From Chloroflexota bacterium (lineage in GTDB: Bacteria; Chloroflexota; Dehalococcoidia; Lucifugimonadales; JADFKI01), in NCBI GenBank assembly GCA_027623195.1, contig JAQBUT010000037.1, positions 1 to 19,610 of the forward strand: a stretch of DNA of 19,610 nucleotides, in the 5' to 3' direction. Every line of letters starts with the position of its first letter. The first letter of the stretch is position 1. The notes under the pieces were generated by a model. That model had not been told where the DNA came from. It did not search any database and saw only the letters and a program-made list of their open reading frames with translations. Of this stretch, positions 3,294-19,356 are shown one piece after another. The translations under genes and the position numbers were made by a program.

Positions 3294-3725
3294 ATGGAAG
3301 ACACCAACAATAATAGATTAGCCTACCTAAACATCAACCAGGAAGCCATAAAGCGGATGGCAGGAAATTCTTTTTTGGTTAAGGGTTGGTCGGTCACGTT
3401 AGTTTCTGCAATGCTCGCAATTTCCGTTACCAGCAAACGTCCCGAAATTGCTTTCTTGTCGGTAGGGCCAGGAATCTTGTTCGCGGGCTGGGATGCATAC
3501 TGGCTAAGGCAAGAACGGTTATTTCGAGCAATCCACGAACAAATCCGCTTGTCCCCTGAAGGGACTATGGGGGAACAGATGTTTTCTATGAACACTAAAT
3601 TATATTCAGACAAGGTACCTGGTTTGTTGAAGACGTTGGTGAGTCTGCCCCTTATCGGCCTATACGGTGGGCTCATCGCCGTCTCACTGGCATTCGCGTT
3701 GATAGGAAATTGGCCATGGGTTTGA
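3294..3725 (+). CDS. Small ~3-TM membrane protein (RMAxNSFxxKGW family); candidate defence effector
   Basis: 143 aa with hydrophobic segments GWSVTLVSAMLAISV, IAFLSVGPGILFAGW and LPLIGLYGGLIAVSLAFALIG. Motifs IKRMAGNSFLVKGW and DAYWLRQERLFR. Ends 25 bp upstream of the TIR gene. Confidence 0.8.
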   Translation: MEDTNNNRLAYLNINQEAIKRMAGNSFLVKGWSVTLVSAMLAISVTSKRPEIAFLSVGPGILFAGWDAYWLRQERLFRAIHEQIRLSPEGTMGEQMFSMNTKLYSDKVPGLLKTLVSLPLIGLYGGLIAVSLAFALIGNWPWV

Positions 3726-3750
3726 ACCACGAGCGATGGAGTAAAAAGAT

Positions 3751-4206
3751 ATGCAATTGAGGAAACGAAGATTATTTATTAGTTTCGATTATGATAACGA
3801 TCTCGTCTTAAAAGACTTCATGATTGGGCAGTCAAAAAACGTTGATTCCCCTTTTGAAATCGAAGATTGGTCGATGAAGGAGGCTGCCCCACAACGCAAC
3901 TGGGAAGCAGAAGCCGCAAAAAGGATTAGTCGTTCGGACACCATCCTAGTAATGTTGGGTCCTCACACACACCGCGCACGGGGAGTATCGAAGGAGGTAT
4001 CTGTTGCAAATAAGCTTGGGAAAGAAATTTTTCAGATAATCGGTTATCAAAACAGCAATCCGCAACGTGTTGCAAATGCAGGTCCTGTATATAACTGGAG
4101 TTGGCCGAACCTCAAGGCGTTGATATCGCCCATTAAAACGCTCGATCTGCCTTCCTTCAACAGGCAATTCGGCAATCGCAGCCCATTTCGCAATCGATTC
4201 AGGTAG
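3751..4206 (+). CDS. TIR-domain protein, Thoeris ThsB/MTH538 (DUF1863)-like
   Basis: N-terminal RRLFISFDYDND, DWSMKE, RISRSDTILVMLGPHT, GVSKEV (position of the catalytic Glu) and WSWPNL. Confidence 0.85.
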   Translation: MQLRKRRLFISFDYDNDLVLKDFMIGQSKNVDSPFEIEDWSMKEAAPQRNWEAEAAKRISRSDTILVMLGPHTHRARGVSKEVSVANKLGKEIFQIIGYQNSNPQRVANAGPVYNWSWPNLKALISPIKTLDLPSFNRQFGNRSPFRNRFR

Positions 4207-6505: not shown

Positions 6506-8542
6506 TCAGCCGTTGTTAGAGAGGAACTGGCGCAGAAACTCCACTACGCGGTCGTCAAGAACGTTGGCCAACGCCGAGGAGTCGGACACCTGGACTAGTT
6601 CGATGAACTTATCTAACTGCTCCCGCGTTGGCCTGTCCAAGATCTGCATGGCGCTGTGAGTGCTCAATCGGCGATTGTACTCGCGCAACGCCCTGGCGAC
6701 CTCGCCGGAAAGCTGCTCCACGCTCCGATGCGGAATGGCCACATTCATCGGCAAAATACACGAACGGCAATATGGAACGTCGCCCAGGTCCAATTCGCCT
6801 TCCGCAACGCCACACAGGCGGTACCCCTCAGACACATCCTTGAACATCTGGTGGACCTCTGTCCCCACAGGCTCGCCCAACTCCGGAATTTCGTTGAAAC
6901 GTGCGAGGGCGTTCACTTGCGGTGTTAGGGTTTCCAGCTGGTGCCGGAGCTCAAGCGCCTCCTGGTGATAAGTGGCGTGAAACGAACTATAGGTCGTGGA
7001 GAAGTTTCCTCGAAGCCTTTCAAGCCCCTCATTGATGCTGTGCCACAGGGACGGGTTGCTTATCAGGCTGGCGGCATCCAGCCTGGCCATGAGCGAGTCC
7101 CGGACAAGCCGTAGGTCCTGATGCTCCAACCCGAAGGTCATCCTATCCAGGTAATTGCGGGCCTCGATGATCGCGGGAACGTAATCCGACAAACTGGCGA
7201 CTCTTTGTAAAGTACCCAAAGCCTCGGACAGATCAGATGGGCCATCGAACTCCCGCTCCACCACAGCATAAAAACCCTGCAGGTCTTCGGCGAAGGACAT
7301 GCGCTTCAGACGTTCCAGGGTCTCGGCCACTGCCCCGACTGCGGACCCCAATCCTGCCGAAATCTCAGCGATTCTGGACTTGGCCGCAGTTAGTTCCGGC
7401 CGCAGCGCCATCAGCACACTTACCAGTTGGCGCTCCTGGTCAGGCGTATCAATGCCTTCATCAGAGGGAGTTAGGCCTTCAACGAGCAGCGTCGCATAAG
7501 GGAGAACCAGGTTCCAATCGACGGTGTGGTCCAGCCGCAATCCCGCCAGTTGTCCCAGTTTCAACACGGCAAAATCAACTTCCGGTACCAGGTCCCTGGT
7601 GATGCGGTCGCTGAGGAAGGCACCGCCTCTGTGGCTCGTAAGTCCGTGTCCGAGCTTCAACTGGAGCTCCCCGCGAGTCTGGCGAACGAATACCAGCAGA
7701 TGAAACAGCGCCAGCTCCAGCGTCAGGCCGTACGTATACATGAGCGTATGGGCCAACGCTGCCGGATCGGCCTCGCCAGCGGACCCTTCTAACTCCCGCT
7801 GAAGAATGGCCAAGACCGGGCTGTGGGAGGCGTCAAAAATCCCAGGACTCTCGGGAGAAGTCACACTCAGACCTGTGGCAAAGGACCTCATAGACTCCTG
7901 CGCGACGATATCTCCCTGGAAGAGCCCTCGGAACACGCGGTCAATGCCTTGGGCCGTTAGTGACTCTGGAAAAGCTCTATAGTCCAACGGCAGTATTGGA
8001 TGCGCCAGAAGCAATGTAGCCGATGCCAACGCGTTAGCCCAAGACTCCAATCCCGTATCCAGGAAAACATCTTGCGCCCGCAGCCCTATCTCTGGGTGGG
8101 TATATATCCTTCCCTGAGAATACGCCATGCCGTAACGCCGTTCCAATTCCCTCCGTAGGGATTCCTCCCGTTCAATCATGGCCCTGCGCAGGGCTTCTGA
8201 GTCGGGGTCCCTGTGAAGAACGTAGCGCTCCCTGGTTTCTTGGATCGACCTTAGCTCTCGCCGCAGAGACTGGCGGACCTGCGTGGGGGAACGGCCCGGT
8301 ACCACCATGGCGATACGGGTATCCAGGATGCGACTCGGGGGTATTCTGCGGGGGACGGTGAAGAAGACCAGACGAAAGTTCAGATTAGGCGGCAGAGGCT
8401 CGCCCCACCGGTGATTTACGCCCTCGGCAATAATCACCTCGCCGGTGTACTCCAAACCTCGATGCCGGACCACCCACGGCTGCGGCTGGCCCAGAGATTC
8501 CAGGTCAAAGCTTAGTGATTGAGGGAGATTTTGCTCGTCCAT
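6506..8542 (-). CDS. Large helical hypothetical protein with C-terminal C-x14-C-x2-C motif; resembles the C-terminal part of DUF6079/BrxC-type proteins
   Basis: 678-aa open frame, Leu/Glu-rich and helical. Contains YSSFHATYH ... LCGVAEGELDLGDVPYCRSC. No Walker A motif seen. The ORF is solid; the family call is from memory. Confidence 0.7.
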   Translation of the reverse strand: MDEQNLPQSLSFDLESLGQPQPWVVRHRGLEYTGEVIIAEGVNHRWGEPLPPNLNFRLVFFTVPRRIPPSRILDTRIAMVVPGRSPTQVRQSLRRELRSIQETRERYVLHRDPDSEALRRAMIEREESLRRELERRYGMAYSQGRIYTHPEIGLRAQDVFLDTGLESWANALASATLLLAHPILPLDYRAFPESLTAQGIDRVFRGLFQGDIVAQESMRSFATGLSVTSPESPGIFDASHSPVLAILQRELEGSAGEADPAALAHTLMYTYGLTLELALFHLLVFVRQTRGELQLKLGHGLTSHRGGAFLSDRITRDLVPEVDFAVLKLGQLAGLRLDHTVDWNLVLPYATLLVEGLTPSDEGIDTPDQERQLVSVLMALRPELTAAKSRIAEISAGLGSAVGAVAETLERLKRMSFAEDLQGFYAVVEREFDGPSDLSEALGTLQRVASLSDYVPAIIEARNYLDRMTFGLEHQDLRLVRDSLMARLDAASLISNPSLWHSINEGLERLRGNFSTTYSSFHATYHQEALELRHQLETLTPQVNALARFNEIPELGEPVGTEVHQMFKDVSEGYRLCGVAEGELDLGDVPYCRSCILPMNVAIPHRSVEQLSGEVARALREYNRRLSTHSAMQILDRPTREQLDKFIELVQVSDSSALANVLDDRVVEFLRQFLSNNG

Positions 8543-9812: not shown

Positions 9813-11402
9813 ATGTCTATACGCATCCTTATTGCTTTAATTTCGTCACTCCTACTGGCAGCCGTCGCTTGTGTCGGAACGACGCGCCCGGAATCGGCAA
9901 CCGATGGTCAGCCAACGGCTACTCAAACGCTCGCGCCAATCGCTGCATCTCCAAGCCCAACTTTGATAGCAACCCAAACTGTCGAACCAACTGCAACGCA
10001 GACCGTTGTGCCACCGACAGCCACAGTACCGCCAACGCCCTCGCCCACGTCTTCACCAACTGCAACGCCTAGCCCATTGCCTACCAACACCCCGGAGCCT
10101 ACGTTTACTCCTACGTCCGAGCCAACGTCCACACCAGAACCTACGCCCACGCCTGGACCACTTTCGGCGGCTCAGGTATTTGAGCAAGTATCACCATCCG
10201 TGGCATTTATACAAACGTCCTCGGCTAGTGGCAGCGGGGTTTTGCTCAGCGACGGGTACGTGATTACGAATGCCCACGTTGTCTGGCCATATAACTCGGC
10301 AAGAATCGTGTTCTCTGACGGCAGCGAATTTCTCAATATCCCTGTCCTAAACCAAGACTTGATAGCGGATATCGCGGTGCTGGGGCCAATTGACACAGAC
10401 TTGAACCATATCGACCTTTCCAATGGTGAGAACCTTATTATTGGGAGTGACACATATCTCATCGGTTATCCGGGTGAAGTTGAGGAGTTTCCCAAACCCA
10501 CAGTGACACGAGGACTGATTTCTAGACTCCGAGAATGGGATACGGGCCAGATTACCTACTTCCAGACTGATGCAACTATCGCTGGCGGCCAAAGCGGAGG
10601 TGTGCTTGTTTCGGACAAGGCAGAGGTGATTGGGATTTCAGGATTCTCGTTCACGGAAGCAGGGTTCGGATTAGTGGCCTCTTCTGCCGATCTTTTGCCC
10701 CGTGTGAACGCCTTAATTAATGAGGAAAACGTAGATAACTTGGGGGAAAGAACCATTCTAATGAGTGGAGGCGCGCGTCGAACTGATCTAACTCTTGAAA
10801 ATTTTTGGGATACCAAGGCTTTCGTTATTATGGAACCAGTCGGCACAGAAATTGAGTTGAGTGTAAGCAGTGACAACGATGCGGCATTGACCCTATATGA
10901 CTCTTTCGGAACTGAGATTCTCAAAGTTGACGATGGATTTGATGGCATGGAATCTGGGGCAGCCATTATTGATTACGCTGAACCTTATTTCCTTGTTATC
11001 AAGCAATTCAACGAGGCCGTCGGCCAATTCCGAGTGCACAGCAATCGCAATATTGTCCAGCTTGAAGATTTGGACGATTCTCAGAGATTAAATATAGGCC
11101 AAATAACCTACGGGAATATCGATTACCCTGGGGATATCGATTACTTTATCCTCAAACTGGAAGGGCGCGACACAGTTGACATTAAAGTCGAGTCCGCAAT
11201 GGTGGACTCATATATAACGGTGGACTTCGAAGGAGCCGTCGAGCACGAATATACATCCGATGACGACAGCGGAGGTGGACTTTTTGGCCTGAACGCATTA
11301 ATAACTTTCACCGCGCCAAGAACTAAGGACTATTTCGTGGTGGTCCAGGACGCCAACTCAAGGGCCCCTGGCGGCTATATCGTTAGTGTGACCCCGCGCT
11401 AA
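9813..11402 (+). CDS. Lipoprotein trypsin-like (S1C/HtrA-type, no PDZ) serine protease with Pro/Thr linker and C-terminal PPC-like domains
   Basis: Signal peptide with lipobox AVAC and a long PT-rich linker. Catalytic triad in ITNAHVV / DIAVL / GGQSGG. C-terminal GDIDYF...DDDSGGG...NALI pre-peptidase-C-like repeats. Confidence 0.88.
   Translation: MSIRILIALISSLLLAAVACVGTTRPESATDGQPTATQTLAPIAASPSPTLIATQTVEPTATQTVVPPTATVPPTPSPTSSPTATPSPLPTNTPEPTFTPTSEPTSTPEPTPTPGPLSAAQVFEQVSPSVAFIQTSSASGSGVLLSDGYVITNAHVVWPYNSARIVFSDGSEFLNIPVLNQDLIADIAVLGPIDTDLNHIDLSNGENLIIGSDTYLIGYPGEVEEFPKPTVTRGLISRLREWDTGQITYFQTDATIAGGQSGGVLVSDKAEVIGISGFSFTEAGFGLVASSADLLPRVNALINEENVDNLGERTILMSGGARRTDLTLENFWDTKAFVIMEPVGTEIELSVSSDNDAALTLYDSFGTEILKVDDGFDGMESGAAIIDYAEPYFLVIKQFNEAVGQFRVHSNRNIVQLEDLDDSQRLNIGQITYGNIDYPGDIDYFILKLEGRDTVDIKVESAMVDSYITVDFEGAVEHEYTSDDDSGGGLFGLNALITFTAPRTKDYFVVVQDANSRAPGGYIVSVTPR
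9890..10160 (+). repeat. Low-complexity Pro/Thr-rich coding repeats (PTATP/EPT)
   Basis: Translation PTATQT...PTPSPTSSPTATPSPLPTNTPEPTFTPTSEPTSTPEPTPTP. Confidence 0.7.
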
Positions 11403-15399: not shown

Positions 15400-17214
15400 C
15401 TACGCCGACTTGTTGCCGAGAACAGCCCTAACGATTCGGGAATTCGATGCCCTGACGTGTAGACCAGACGAATATGCCATATATGAAGCCAGAATTATGC
15501 AGACCGCCGCGAATATCAGCAAAAATGGCCCTCGTGAAGGACCAACGTCGTTGACGGCAATCGCTGGAGAAACGGTCGCCTGTTGCGTTACAGTGCTCCC
15601 CTGAAATCCCGCGTAGCTAACGCTGGCTCGAATGCTCAGGTCGGAGTCATCCTCATTTGGGCGAATCACAAAGGTCGCCAGGCCCCTCTCATCCGTGCTC
15701 ATTACCAGAGGCTCGTTCAGCAGGCCAGCCGACTCCCAAACTACTTCTGCGTTGGCCACCGGCTCGCCCTCGGCAGTGACAATGGCTGTGATATCGGCGT
15801 CGGCCCCGGCGGTTAGCACAGGCACGTCCAGCGCTACCTCCAGTTCCTGGCGTTCAATCTCAAAGGCCAGCGACGTGCCCTCAACGCCTGGCGCCGCTGC
15901 TGCAAGGGTCACCTGCCGCTCGGTGGAGTCCTTGCCAAGATTAAGTGTCACGAAGCTATGTCCGGCCGGTATCTCGAGCCTGGTGGGTAGATCCGCACCC
16001 TGGCTCAGCAGGTTGACTGTGTGGCCGTCATGAAATACCACCGGCCTACCCGACTGGTCGATCAGCTGAATAGTGATCGTCGAAGGCACGGGGTCAGTTC
16101 CCAAAGGGGTGGACGGCGCCTGCTGCAAAGACAAGCGCGTTTCCAGGACGCCATAGGTAGGCATCTCCACCGTAGCGGACACCATACCCACGGCGCCAGC
16201 CGAAACTGTGGCGCTGCCGGGCCTGTCGGTGCTGCGAACGCCATACGTCACGTATGAACGGGAGGCCTCGCAGTTTGACGGTGACGCGGGACTTGTAACA
16301 GTAAGAATCCGCGGGTCGGACGAGACAACGGAGACATCAGTGCATGGGAAATCCACAGGTACTCGATTGGCGTCCAGGGCCCGGAGGACTATTGCCTGAC
16401 GTTCCACCCCTCTGGCTGGCAAAGACGGCAGAAGCGAGTAGGCTTCCAAGATGGATGGCTCTCCCTGTTCCACCAGTTCGGAGATCGACACCCAGGCGGT
16501 GCCGGACTGCATGGCTTCAGCTTGGGCCAGTATGCTTACATCGTCGGTCTTTTGGGGTATCCACTGGGTCATGGCCACGTAACCGCCCGCCGGAATTACT
16601 ACCGTCCTGGGCAGGTCGATGGACTCTGACGCAGAACTGGTAAGCACTACCTGGATGTCTCGTGGGGCAAGAAACGGAATTCCAGAGGCGTCTACCAGGG
16701 CCACTGAGAGCAGGCCCGGCTGGCCCGGGTATACCACTGGTGGAAGGGCAGAGACGGCCAGCCTGTACGGAGGCTGTGAGCCCAGGCTACTGGCTGTGCC
16801 AAGGCCGACCTCCGCGTCTGCAAAGCCCACGGCCACAGCTTTTAGGCGCACCGTTCCGGGCATATGAGATACGGTCACAGGAACGATGGCGTAGCTGGTG
16901 CCAGGCTCTACGACAGCCTCATCGGGCAATGCTGCGATATCCGGATCGGAGCTGGTCAAAAATACTCGCACCGGTTCAAGGCTTTGAACTGGGGTGCTGT
17001 CCTGCTCCCAGAGCTGAACATAAAGGGCCCTGTAAGTGTTTCCGTCTGCCGGCAGGCTGGATGGGGCAATAGTTAAAGAGAGCTTCCCCCCTGGGGCGAG
17101 GCTCTGTGCCTCTAACGTGGATGGAGTGATAGCCAGCACACCAATCACGGCAGATAGACAAACCGCTATAACAGGGGAGAAACCTGCCCGGCGGGCAAAG
17201 AGCAACGCGTTCAT
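15400..17214 (-). CDS. Secreted, C-terminally membrane-anchored protein with ~5 tandem Ig-like (invasin/Big-type) domains
   Basis: Signal peptide ending LEA|QS. Repeated ~105-aa units (V.L.D..G.P.....V.L.SS....LP..V.IP.G.S). The last unit has the Big_1-like GEPVANAEV...TDERGLATF. C-terminal TM FLLIFAAVCIILASYMAY is followed by a basic tail. Confidence 0.75.
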   Translation of the reverse strand: MNALLFARRAGFSPVIAVCLSAVIGVLAITPSTLEAQSLAPGGKLSLTIAPSSLPADGNTYRALYVQLWEQDSTPVQSLEPVRVFLTSSDPDIAALPDEAVVEPGTSYAIVPVTVSHMPGTVRLKAVAVGFADAEVGLGTASSLGSQPPYRLAVSALPPVVYPGQPGLLSVALVDASGIPFLAPRDIQVVLTSSASESIDLPRTVVIPAGGYVAMTQWIPQKTDDVSILAQAEAMQSGTAWVSISELVEQGEPSILEAYSLLPSLPARGVERQAIVLRALDANRVPVDFPCTDVSVVSSDPRILTVTSPASPSNCEASRSYVTYGVRSTDRPGSATVSAGAVGMVSATVEMPTYGVLETRLSLQQAPSTPLGTDPVPSTITIQLIDQSGRPVVFHDGHTVNLLSQGADLPTRLEIPAGHSFVTLNLGKDSTERQVTLAAAAPGVEGTSLAFEIERQELEVALDVPVLTAGADADITAIVTAEGEPVANAEVVWESAGLLNEPLVMSTDERGLATFVIRPNEDDSDLSIRASVSYAGFQGSTVTQQATVSPAIAVNDVGPSRGPFLLIFAAVCIILASYMAYSSGLHVRASNSRIVRAVLGNKSA

Positions 17215-17297
17215 CCCTAAAGTCCAGTCTGATTAAATAATCGTCCCGTCTTTAGGTAAACACTTTTCGGTCGGTGGCCAAGCGACGGTTGTGCCAT

Positions 17298-18290
17298 CTA
17301 CCGTCCGGCTTCCCGTTCCATCAACTCGGTCTGGCGCTGGATATTGCTCTCTAACAGTTCGGCTACCCTGGCCAGACTTTGGACCGCACTGGTGTGCGAT
17401 TTCAGGTGAGTGGCATACTCTGAAATCGATTCACCAAGCTGGTCCAGAGAAATCTTTATCTGCCTTTGCTCATCAGTTAGCTCTTCGACGGCCTCGACAA
17501 TGGGCGACATGGACTCGGCGGCATTGCCAAGAGGCGCAATCAAATCTGCATTGACACGTGAGGCCCTGGGCATTCGATCCAGGTTTCCTTTGGCCATGTG
17601 CATATCGGGTCTGAAGGCGTCGTCATCCTGCATCACTACGTCGATGATTGTCAGGCCAGACGCCGGTTGCCCCAGCCCTTCTCCGTGCGGACCTTCCAGC
17701 ATGTTGTCCTTCGGTGATTGTGGCTTTCTCAGCACCGTAGTGTGAAACATGACCATTGCCGGTATGTAAAGCAGCGAGATTAGAATGGCTATGGACACGA
17801 ATAGGATGCCGCGCGGGCTGGTCAGCATCACCACCGGCTTGCCCACCGCTGGTATCCGTAGCGTCTGCTTACCCTCTACCTGTGCGGATGTCACTGGCCA
17901 CGGGTCGGTGCTGCTGTTGTCTCCCTTGGTAATTAACACCCGCTGGCCATTGCGGGCTCCCGTTTTTTGCACACGATGCAGGATGGTATTGGGCCCGGAT
18001 GCGGCCTCTGCGGCGTCTGGAATCTTGTAAGCAATAATGTCCCCAGCGTCGATTTCCGAGAATCGCATGCCCTTAAGCAGGATTATGTCGCCGGAGAAGA
18101 GCGTTGGTTCCATACTCTCGCCGTTAACCAGGCGCAGAGGGAGGAAGTTACCGGAGTATACGGAGAGCGCGCTGTAAGCAAAAAGCAACAGCAAGACAAA
18201 CAGACGTGTGCTGAATAGACGTCGCCTTTCACCGGTGTGTTCGGTGATGGGCATGGAAGCGCTTACGACGCCAGCGTTACGGGCAGGCAT
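17298..18290 (-). CDS. Signal peptidase I, Ser-His (SipW/Sec11-type, S26B) with C-terminal coiled-coil extension
   Basis: N-terminal TM, GESMEPTL (Ser), GDII, ILHRV (His in place of Lys), ITKGDN, IPAVG, a second TM and a helical tail. Alternative start ATG 18254. Confidence 0.88.
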   Translation of the reverse strand: MPARNAGVVSASMPITEHTGERRRLFSTRLFVLLLLFAYSALSVYSGNFLPLRLVNGESMEPTLFSGDIILLKGMRFSEIDAGDIIAYKIPDAAEAASGPNTILHRVQKTGARNGQRVLITKGDNSSTDPWPVTSAQVEGKQTLRIPAVGKPVVMLTSPRGILFVSIAILISLLYIPAMVMFHTTVLRKPQSPKDNMLEGPHGEGLGQPASGLTIIDVVMQDDDAFRPDMHMAKGNLDRMPRASRVNADLIAPLGNAAESMSPIVEAVEELTDEQRQIKISLDQLGESISEYATHLKSHTSAVQSLARVAELLESNIQRQTELMEREAGR

Positions 18291-18804
18291 TGAGTCTCGT
18301 CACAACGGTGCTGTAGTTGTCAATAGTGGGACTAGGCCCTCCCAGATCGACCCGAAAGCGCACGCCTTCAACCTGATTACCATCGGCGTTGGAGTTCTTA
18401 AAGTAAAGTGTGCGGAGGAGACTACCGTCGCCGAAGACCTCTACGCTGTATATGCGAGTTGCATCCCACGAGGTGGAGATGACTTCCGCAATCTGGCCGC
18501 CATAAACCAGGTTTCCGGCAATCAGATCACCTCTTGCGATGGGATTGTTTCCTGCTGCCTCAACACCAGGGCAAACCACAGCATTGGCTGCTCGATTACC
18601 ACCCTGGGTTATGTGCCCTTGCAATCTCACAAGCACATCGGCGTCTGGCGTGATCCGCTCCTGAAATACGGTGACGTAAGAAGTGGAGGAGGCGATGTTG
18701 ACTGCCCCAACAGACGTGGAGGCAAGAAGGGCTACGCCCCCAATAAGTATTAGTGCAGCGACAACGTAATGGCTACGCACGATTATTCGAATCCCACCAT
18801 TCAT
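18277..18804 (-). CDS. Secreted beta-rich subunit B (paralog of 18856..19356); candidate filament/pilin protein
   Basis: Signal peptide YVVAALILIGGVALLASTSVGA, two Cys, and a C-terminal half that aligns with the neighbouring gene. Confidence 0.75.
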   Translation of the reverse strand: MNGGIRIIVRSHYVVAALILIGGVALLASTSVGAVNIASSTSYVTVFQERITPDADVLVRLQGHITQGGNRAANAVVCPGVEAAGNNPIARGDLIAGNLVYGGQIAEVISTSWDATRIYSVEVFGDGSLLRTLYFKNSNADGNQVEGVRFRVDLGGPSPTIDNYSTVVTRLNACP

Positions 18805-18855
18805 GGATCCTGACGTTGGGAAGCAAGGCCCAAATCACCCGGAGGTCCTGTCTTC

Positions 18856-19356
18856 TTAGAACCTGTCGACCTTCACGGTCATGGAGTCCGGAACGCCAGT
18901 GCCAAGGCCTACTCTGACGGTGGCGCCTTCGATGGCAGCGGCATTGTCGGTGCTGTTGTTGATATAGAGGATGCCAAGGGACTGGCCATCAGCGAAGGTC
19001 TCTATCCGGTATTGCCGGGTGACGTCCCATGAGGCGATCCCGATCTCTTGCAGCGTGAACTGGTACACAAAATCACCAGGGTTGAGGGGCGTGTTGATTG
19101 TGACCAACGCGGTGTCCACGTCTACAGGCGACCCCTGGTTGTCACCGTTGGCCGCCACGGTCAGCCCCGACATGGAAATGGACGTATTGGACACGTTGGT
19201 GTCCGGGTCCACCACGAAGTTCTCTGCCGAGAGGTCTACTTGGGTGGTGGTTGTGTTTATGGTCAACGTGGCCACACCAGAGGCCGACACCACGATTACG
19301 AATCCGAAAATGATTAAAACGAAAAGGGGTAGGCTGCGAATTTTGTCCAGAATCAC
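18856..19356 (-). CDS. Secreted beta-rich subunit A with TasA-like motifs; candidate major filament protein
   Basis: GTG start after a GGAGGT RBS. Signal peptide LPLFVLIIFGFVIVVSASGVA. Thr/Val/Asn-rich mature chain with VDLSA and LNPGD motifs. Confidence 0.78.
   Translation of the reverse strand: MILDKIRSLPLFVLIIFGFVIVVSASGVATLTINTTTTQVDLSAENFVVDPDTNVSNTSISMSGLTVAANGDNQGSPVDVDTALVTINTPLNPGDFVYQFTLQEIGIASWDVTRQYRIETFADGQSLGILYINNSTDNAAAIEGATVRVGLGTGVPDSMTVKVDRF

Follow-up and report, generated by a model that had tools for sequence, protein, structure and literature searches.

Pilins of the chaperone–usher pathway, such as FimA, CfaB, and CupE, are immunoglobulin (Ig)-like sandwiches that lack the last strand and carry an N-terminal extension. 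The donor-strand fibers of monoderm microbes are now classed in one jelly-roll superfamily, that of TasA. The present study concerns a four-gene operon that resembles both groups in part. It lies in a 19,610-bp contig (JAQBUT010000037.1; here called the window, which is the entire contig) of a Chloroflexota bacterium of the class Dehalococcoidia, and it encodes two paralogous, probably secreted proteins (A and B), a signal peptidase, and a large Ig protein. We favor, at slightly better than even confidence, the reading that this operon encodes a donor-strand surface filament of a separate Ig-like family.

Like the tapA–sipW–tasA operon of Bacillus subtilis, as far as described in the available text of PMC9674648, the locus has an extra Ser-His peptidase, subunits with an arm of ~20 residues after the signal peptide (in TasA, the arm extending to the next subunit comprises 20 residues, 28–47), and a monoderm host. 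It differs in that the subunits are ~140 amino acids (aa) rather than 26 kDa, match neither PF12389 nor TIGR04088, and have Ig-like rather than jelly-roll structural matches; moreover, no TapA-like donor is seen, the Ig protein being without an arm. The AbpX and Tafi loci (10.64898/2026.01.04.697558; PMC12337348, available parts) likewise combine paralogous subunits, a signal peptidase I (SPase I), and an anchor, and there too a subunit is acidic and the peptidase can be fused to DUF5305, as at one locus of the family described here. The aromatic +2/acidic +4 signature of their arms is absent here, no fold match to them is listed for A or B, and the peptidase has two hydrophobic regions, not ten helices. 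Clostridium perfringens sipW–bsaA–bsaB (PMC11580942, available parts) also has two paralogous SipW-linked subunits, possibly forming a heteropolymer, and a link to type IV pilus genes matched at some loci here; in contrast, BsaA can be reached from TasA/CalY by profile search, and the present locus has no sortase or LPXTG partner. Finally, A and B resemble chaperone–usher pilins as predicted Ig-like sandwiches apparently without a last strand and with an N-terminal extension, but no chaperone or usher gene is present, the host is monoderm, the peptidase is dedicated, and no sequence or fold score is significant.

Results

Organization of the operon

Four minus-strand open reading frames (ORFs) occupy positions 19356–15400, in the order subunit A, subunit B, peptidase, Ig protein. 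The features are:

18856..19356, minus strand: subunit A, 166 aa; hydrophobic signal region 1–29, N-terminal arm, Ig-like β-sandwich core
19210..19269, minus strand: predicted donor arm of A, mature residues 1–20, from family columns and the monomer model
18277..18804, minus strand: subunit B, paralog of A, 175 aa; likely start GTG 18780
18643..18702, minus strand: predicted donor arm of B, mature residues 1–20, from the monomer model
17298..18290, minus strand: S26B (SipW/archaeal-type) Ser-His signal peptidase, 330 aa; S59, H105, D124
15400..17214, minus strand: tandem Ig-like protein with signal region and C-terminal membrane anchor, 604 aa

An earlier note on this DNA, made from the sequence alone, had proposed an operon of four co-oriented, closely spaced genes; the ORFs, their coordinates, and the paralogy of A and B were confirmed, and the operon claim is supported. 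A and B are separated by 51 bp, the peptidase ORF overlaps the B stop by 14 bp, and 83 bp separate the peptidase and Ig genes. Subunit A has a GTG start with GGAGG 11 nt upstream, and the GTG at 18780 is suggested as the start of B by its homologs. The GC content of the operon is similar to that of the remainder of the contig, and a scan of the operon for promoters and terminators gave chance-level results (2 vs. 2.2; 4 vs. 3.7). RNA holders of the operon were searched for, with none listed. A and B are 29% identical across 160 aligned columns (E 4e-17) and are the only family members that a profile search finds in this genome. Mature A has an isoelectric point of 4.05, and B has two cysteines, retained in B-type relatives, that probably form a disulfide.

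A family defined by an amphipathic N-terminal arm

Neither A nor B has a Pfam or NCBIfam match above cut-off. Word-indexed searches returned 19 relatives for A and 8 for B, and a joint A/B profile found 180 representatives at E 0.001, 150 of them among the matches listed. The family alignment comprises 122 sequences (fragments, proteins above ~220 aa, and one repeat protein were excluded), many just 18–30% identical to A. A hydrophobic stretch lies ahead of the cleavage site in 113 of 114 rows, and the presumed site itself, V-[AG]-[AT], precedes a hydrophobic residue; its numbering is uncertain by one residue in either direction. The arm that follows is Thr/Ser-rich, and across the 122 rows the share of hydrophobic residues is 0.89, 0.70, 0.70, 0.79, and 0.92 at +2, +4, +11, +13, and +18, all hydrophobic in A, and only 0.04–0.07 at +1, +3, +5, and +6. 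The conserved E16 and D21 of A recur in 79/120 and 100/121 rows, and in the core E75, E114, G115, and G123 are near-invariant.

At E 0.1, no Pfam family matches more than 2 of the 122 members, two profiles searched against PDB sequences gave nothing better than E 0.2, an Atlas search with A gave no usable match, and no plasmid match was found for any member. Look-ups of 30 proteins gave no sources other than SAR202 and Chloroflexota; that distant relatives include archaeal proteins is therefore unproven. No paper on the family was found; it is nameless, so word searches can miss it, and the sequence tables of 10.64898/2026.01.04.697558, 10.1101/2024.12.30.630787, and PMC9245690 could hold members. 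As far as the literature was searched, what is new here is the subunit family itself. The earlier note's statement that no such system is described in the lineage was too wide, since TasA-like and AbpX-like proteins are reported in Chloroflexota (available parts of PMC9245690 and 10.64898/2026.01.04.697558) and PF12389 proteins are present in part of the phylum; within the literature searched, it holds for this subunit family.

Some members are longer. A Cys-His-Met type-1 copper motif stands at the end of 13 of the 22 listed members above 240 aa, and a cupredoxin-type Pfam match at E 0.001, in some cases below cut-off, is found in 13 of these 22; the cupredoxin-fused members are P0087, P0100, P0110, P0112, P0131, P0132, P0138, P0141, P0142, P0143, P0146, P0155, and P0169. 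Another long member, P0102, bears a C-terminal CBM96. Such proteins are possible tip or decorated subunits.

Predicted structure of the subunits

Monomer models of A and B (mean predicted local distance difference test [pLDDT] scores of 93.2 and 92.5) predict a six-strand Ig-like sandwich with an unpaired arm. Residues 1–13 of A and 1–22 of B have no strand partner, and pLDDT falls to ~62 in the arm of B vs. 93–98 in the core. The models thus agree with the free N-terminal strand that the earlier note had expected in both subunits, and the closed monomer without such a strand, which it had named as a refutation, did not appear. Structural matches start at about residue 21 and are Ig/Fn3-like. 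Where short targets are aligned from their first residues, the match ends before the chain does (7cg5 2-87 of 100, 2ox5_Z 1-94 of 108, 7skp -1-68 of 76), which is read as a missing last strand. This strand-G-less Ig fold is suggested by alignment ranges, with no significant score to any pilin: in the PDB and viral libraries Foldseek had no match at E 0.001, and CfaB is the top row for the B model at a nonsignificant level (E 0.02, template modeling [TM] score 0.20).

The top covarying pairs (D66–G121, S27–Q74, T29–T72, S34–V68) fit an A-B-E sheet. Placement of the arm by mean-field and pseudo-likelihood covariation failed, with no arm–core ladder. A homotrimer prediction for mature A scored 0.00, which is no verdict and was counted neither for nor against.

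The signal peptidase and the Ig protein

The Ser-His signal peptidase claimed in the earlier note is well supported, scoring 83.9 bits on TIGR02228 (cut-off 51.85), with S59, H105, and D124 invariant in 7/7 aligned neighbor peptidases; against the Bacillus SipW equivalog NF046067 it reaches 37.1 bits, below the cut-off of 190. Its membrane segments are 25–50 and 152–187, and an EYAxHLxSHT motif in the C-terminal tail is retained in 6/7 aligned neighbors. Two LepB-type genes lie elsewhere in the genome, so the operon peptidase is an extra enzyme. Peptidases at family loci have three architectures (long tail, DUF5305 fusion, and short form), and the available texts report SPase–DUF5305 at AbpX and Tafi loci (10.64898/2026.01.04.697558; PMC12337348). 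A tree of 35 rows joins the six long-tail enzymes only weakly (86/61) and cannot show co-evolution. The second TIGR02228 match of this genome (C16; L054 8092–9438) is a lipoprotein-like coiled-coil protein of 448 aa that contains an internal S26B-like domain; it has no subunit neighbor and is present in G001 too.

The 604-aa protein is, as previously described, a tandem-Ig protein with a signal region and a C-terminal anchor: its hydrophobic segments are 9–36 and 557–585, and it has Invasin_D3/Big_1 matches below cut-off. An ordinary Ig repeat directly follows the signal region, and a profile of the family arm, which scores B (E 7e-5), matches none of 4 Ig proteins and 7 peptidases convincingly; because of this start and the missing arm match, the protein does not qualify as a TapA-like strand donor. 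In the Atlas, the cluster closest to it is an archaeal (Nitrososphaerota) 799-aa surface-type protein (0.91), a lead only, recognition being below the tool's mark. Of 401 order genomes, the same 5 carry the Ig protein and the subunits, and in G109 the Ig gene stands at a contig end, on a different contig from the subunit, compatible with one operon. It was not found in G001, G430, G691, and G782 (77–99% complete), the last three of which do bear subunits. The protein is likely an accessory of this sub-lineage, a cell-surface anchor or adhesin that is itself not a strand donor.

Distribution and gene linkage

The family is rare, with 5 strong matches in 401 order genomes, 3 more in 401 class genomes, and 1 strong and 1 weak match in a phylum sample of 401. 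The five order genomes span three families and, being kin, are not independent. Weak matches in G047 (1136-aa protein), G802 (662-aa protein), G090, and G216 were dropped, as were a tblastn match on C65 (E 0.002; absent from the profile search) and the repeat protein P0159. An S26 gene lies directly downstream of a subunit gene in 8 of 11 family loci and in 8 of the 9 genomes with a strong match (contigs C7 and C81 of G430 count as one locus). The earlier note had held that failure of the subunits to co-occur with an S26B peptidase would speak against a filament; instead, the co-occurrence is borne out across genomes. The complete order A–B–peptidase–Ig recurs in G002, G004, and G238, the last belonging to another taxonomic family with other downstream neighbors. 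In the window and these three genomes the locus consists of just four genes, with chaperone and usher genes absent. Subunit followed by peptidase is seen in G109, G430, G691 (peptidase fused to DUF5305), and on contig C95 of G782; the three loci with no adjoining peptidase are G430 C134, G652 C35 (near a contig end), and G782 C67.

At L014 1–1180, a broken A gene leads into the tail of the peptidase, with an FBPase gene next, all within ~0.6 kb, and L015 and L016, from two assemblies, carry identical broken Ig fragments; these are metagenome contigs with an eroded operon. G001 (same genus, 86% complete) gave no operon match. Loss of the operon is under way in relatives.

Type IV pilin and assembly genes lie beside subunit, peptidase, or Ig genes in G109 and G430 (L038, L041, L098), a neighborhood reminiscent of C. 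perfringens, where secretion of the Bsa proteins is linked to pili. The subunit of G652, in which TIGR02228 has six matches, is on a 7-kb contig (L043) that may be mis-binned from an archaeon. At L044 15529–18186 in G782, an SPase–DUF5305 fusion precedes a secreted protein from a different family, which has a Pro/Thr-rich tail and lacks Pfam matches; the pair may represent a second filament system.

Other genes of the window

A low-GC two-gene insert at 3294–4206, on the opposite strand, encodes a 143-aa membrane protein and a ThsB-type TIR protein (PF08937, 34.9 bits), possibly an anti-phage defense pair. Positions 6506–8542 encode a 678-aa helical protein with CxxC...CxxC near its end and no Pfam or NCBIfam match. 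At 9813–11402, on the plus strand among minus-strand genes, lies the gene of a lipoprotein-like trypsin protease of 529 aa that has both a Pro/Thr linker and a PPC-like domain.

Discussion

Under the favored reading, A and B are likely exported by Sec, and the co-encoded S26B peptidase likely cuts both at V-[AG]-[AT], ahead of the first hydrophobic arm residue. The freed arm of each subunit would then likely complete the Ig-like sandwich of the next, taking the place of the missing last strand, by analogy with TasA and chaperone–usher pilins. Polymerization into a thin surface filament is predicted to be chaperone-free, and by comparison with known systems the filament may serve adhesion or aggregation; our guess is that A is the main subunit and B a co-subunit. 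The position of the operon peptidase beside the subunits counts for a filament operon, an extra S26B gene at this place being the pattern of such operons in the available parts of 10.64898/2026.01.04.697558 and PMC11580942. Taking both possible lineages of origin together, filament formation by N-terminal strand donation is probable.

The same mechanism could also operate if the subunits are a shortened and very distant offshoot of the TasA superfamily, a jelly-roll variant, which we consider an unlikely origin. Co-encoded SPase I, often a feature of that superfamily, is present here. The motifs VDLSA and INTPLNPGDF, which the earlier note had likened to TasA, do occur in A, but the resemblance fails: it is confined to A and its close kin, with DL at 12–13 in 10/122 family rows and PGD in 4/122, and the motifs are 52 residues apart in A vs. 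16–21 in 8 of 12 measurable TasA-like proteins. In hhalign comparisons with 24 PF12389 proteins from 18 phylum genomes (PF12389 occurs in 18/251), the subunits reached 6.8% with signal peptides, over 8 signal-region columns, and 0.2% as mature proteins, using a shallow template without secondary structure; this test is weak because it took deep HHpred profiles to link the branches of the superfamily in print (10.1101/2024.12.30.630787, available parts). PF12389 (Peptidase_M73) matches neither A nor B nor anything in the genome at E 0.1, and it is absent among the 25 of 30 weak families listed for the 122 members. The SipW-cognate signal peptide TIGR04088 was found in 0/23 scored candidates of the genome, with positive controls in B. 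subtilis and H. volcanii. The AbpX clade feature (aromatic +2, acidic +4; 10.64898/2026.01.04.697558, available parts) occurs in 13/122 and 0/122 rows, and the cannula protein Hyper2 aligns with the B model at just TM 0.22, E 0.16. The 50 best rows of the structural searches contain no TasA, AbpA, AbpX, thread, or Tafi entry, which leaves room for kinship, and in the covariation analysis the first and second core strands pair, in Ig-fold fashion. Homology to TasA was thus not borne out, the fold matches being Ig-like only. The likeness to TasA is one of gene logic and arm length; superfamily membership is unproven, and the sequence-level criteria fail.

An improbable alternative is that no long filament forms, and that A and B are cleaved, secreted Ig-like proteins acting as monomers, an A–B pair, or a surface lattice, perhaps docked on the 604-aa anchor, with the arm a linker or docking peptide. 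The missing arm–core ladder, the bulky cupredoxin and CBM96 domains of longer members, the orphan subunit copies, and the surface-type Atlas neighbor of the anchor all fit it. Against this, a fixed amphipathic arm that persists down to ~20% identity is unexpected of a Ser/Thr linker, the peptidase linkage follows the filament-operon pattern, and the anchor was not found in three subunit-bearing genomes. That the hydrophobic N-terminus is kept as a membrane anchor, or that A and B are pilin- or archaellin-like accessories of a type IV filament system, is very doubtful despite the type IV genes adjoining in G109 and G430, since such genes do not flank the locus in the window, G002, G004, or G238, and small residues ahead of the conserved polar–hydrophobic arm suit SPase I cleavage. 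An identity of A and B as archaellins or type IV pilins was rejected: they have no N_methyl or archaellin Pfam match and no class III leader is seen in the sequence, and their presumed site is SPase I-like.

The donor-strand filament may even represent an independent class, in which chaperone–usher-like incomplete Ig subunits assemble in monoderm cells with a private S26B peptidase only, unrelated to the TasA jelly-roll line; we hold this tentatively and below even likelihood. A peptidase-linked Ig-like family would either widen the TasA superfamily or bridge it to chaperone–usher pilins, a link of which there is just a hint in the available parts of 10.1101/2024.12.30.630787. In the available text on the first SAR202-like isolates, surface filaments were not seen (PMC12488501). 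As a small and expressible set of four genes, the operon provides a candidate means by which SAR202-like bacteria attach to surfaces; it also provides a natural scaffold that bears passenger domains. A C-terminal carbohydrate-binding domain is present in some subunits and a type-1 copper domain in many, so the filament, if real, would be a modular display scaffold, and a copper-decorated, redox-active fiber would be possible in uncultured Chloroflexota and possibly in archaea.

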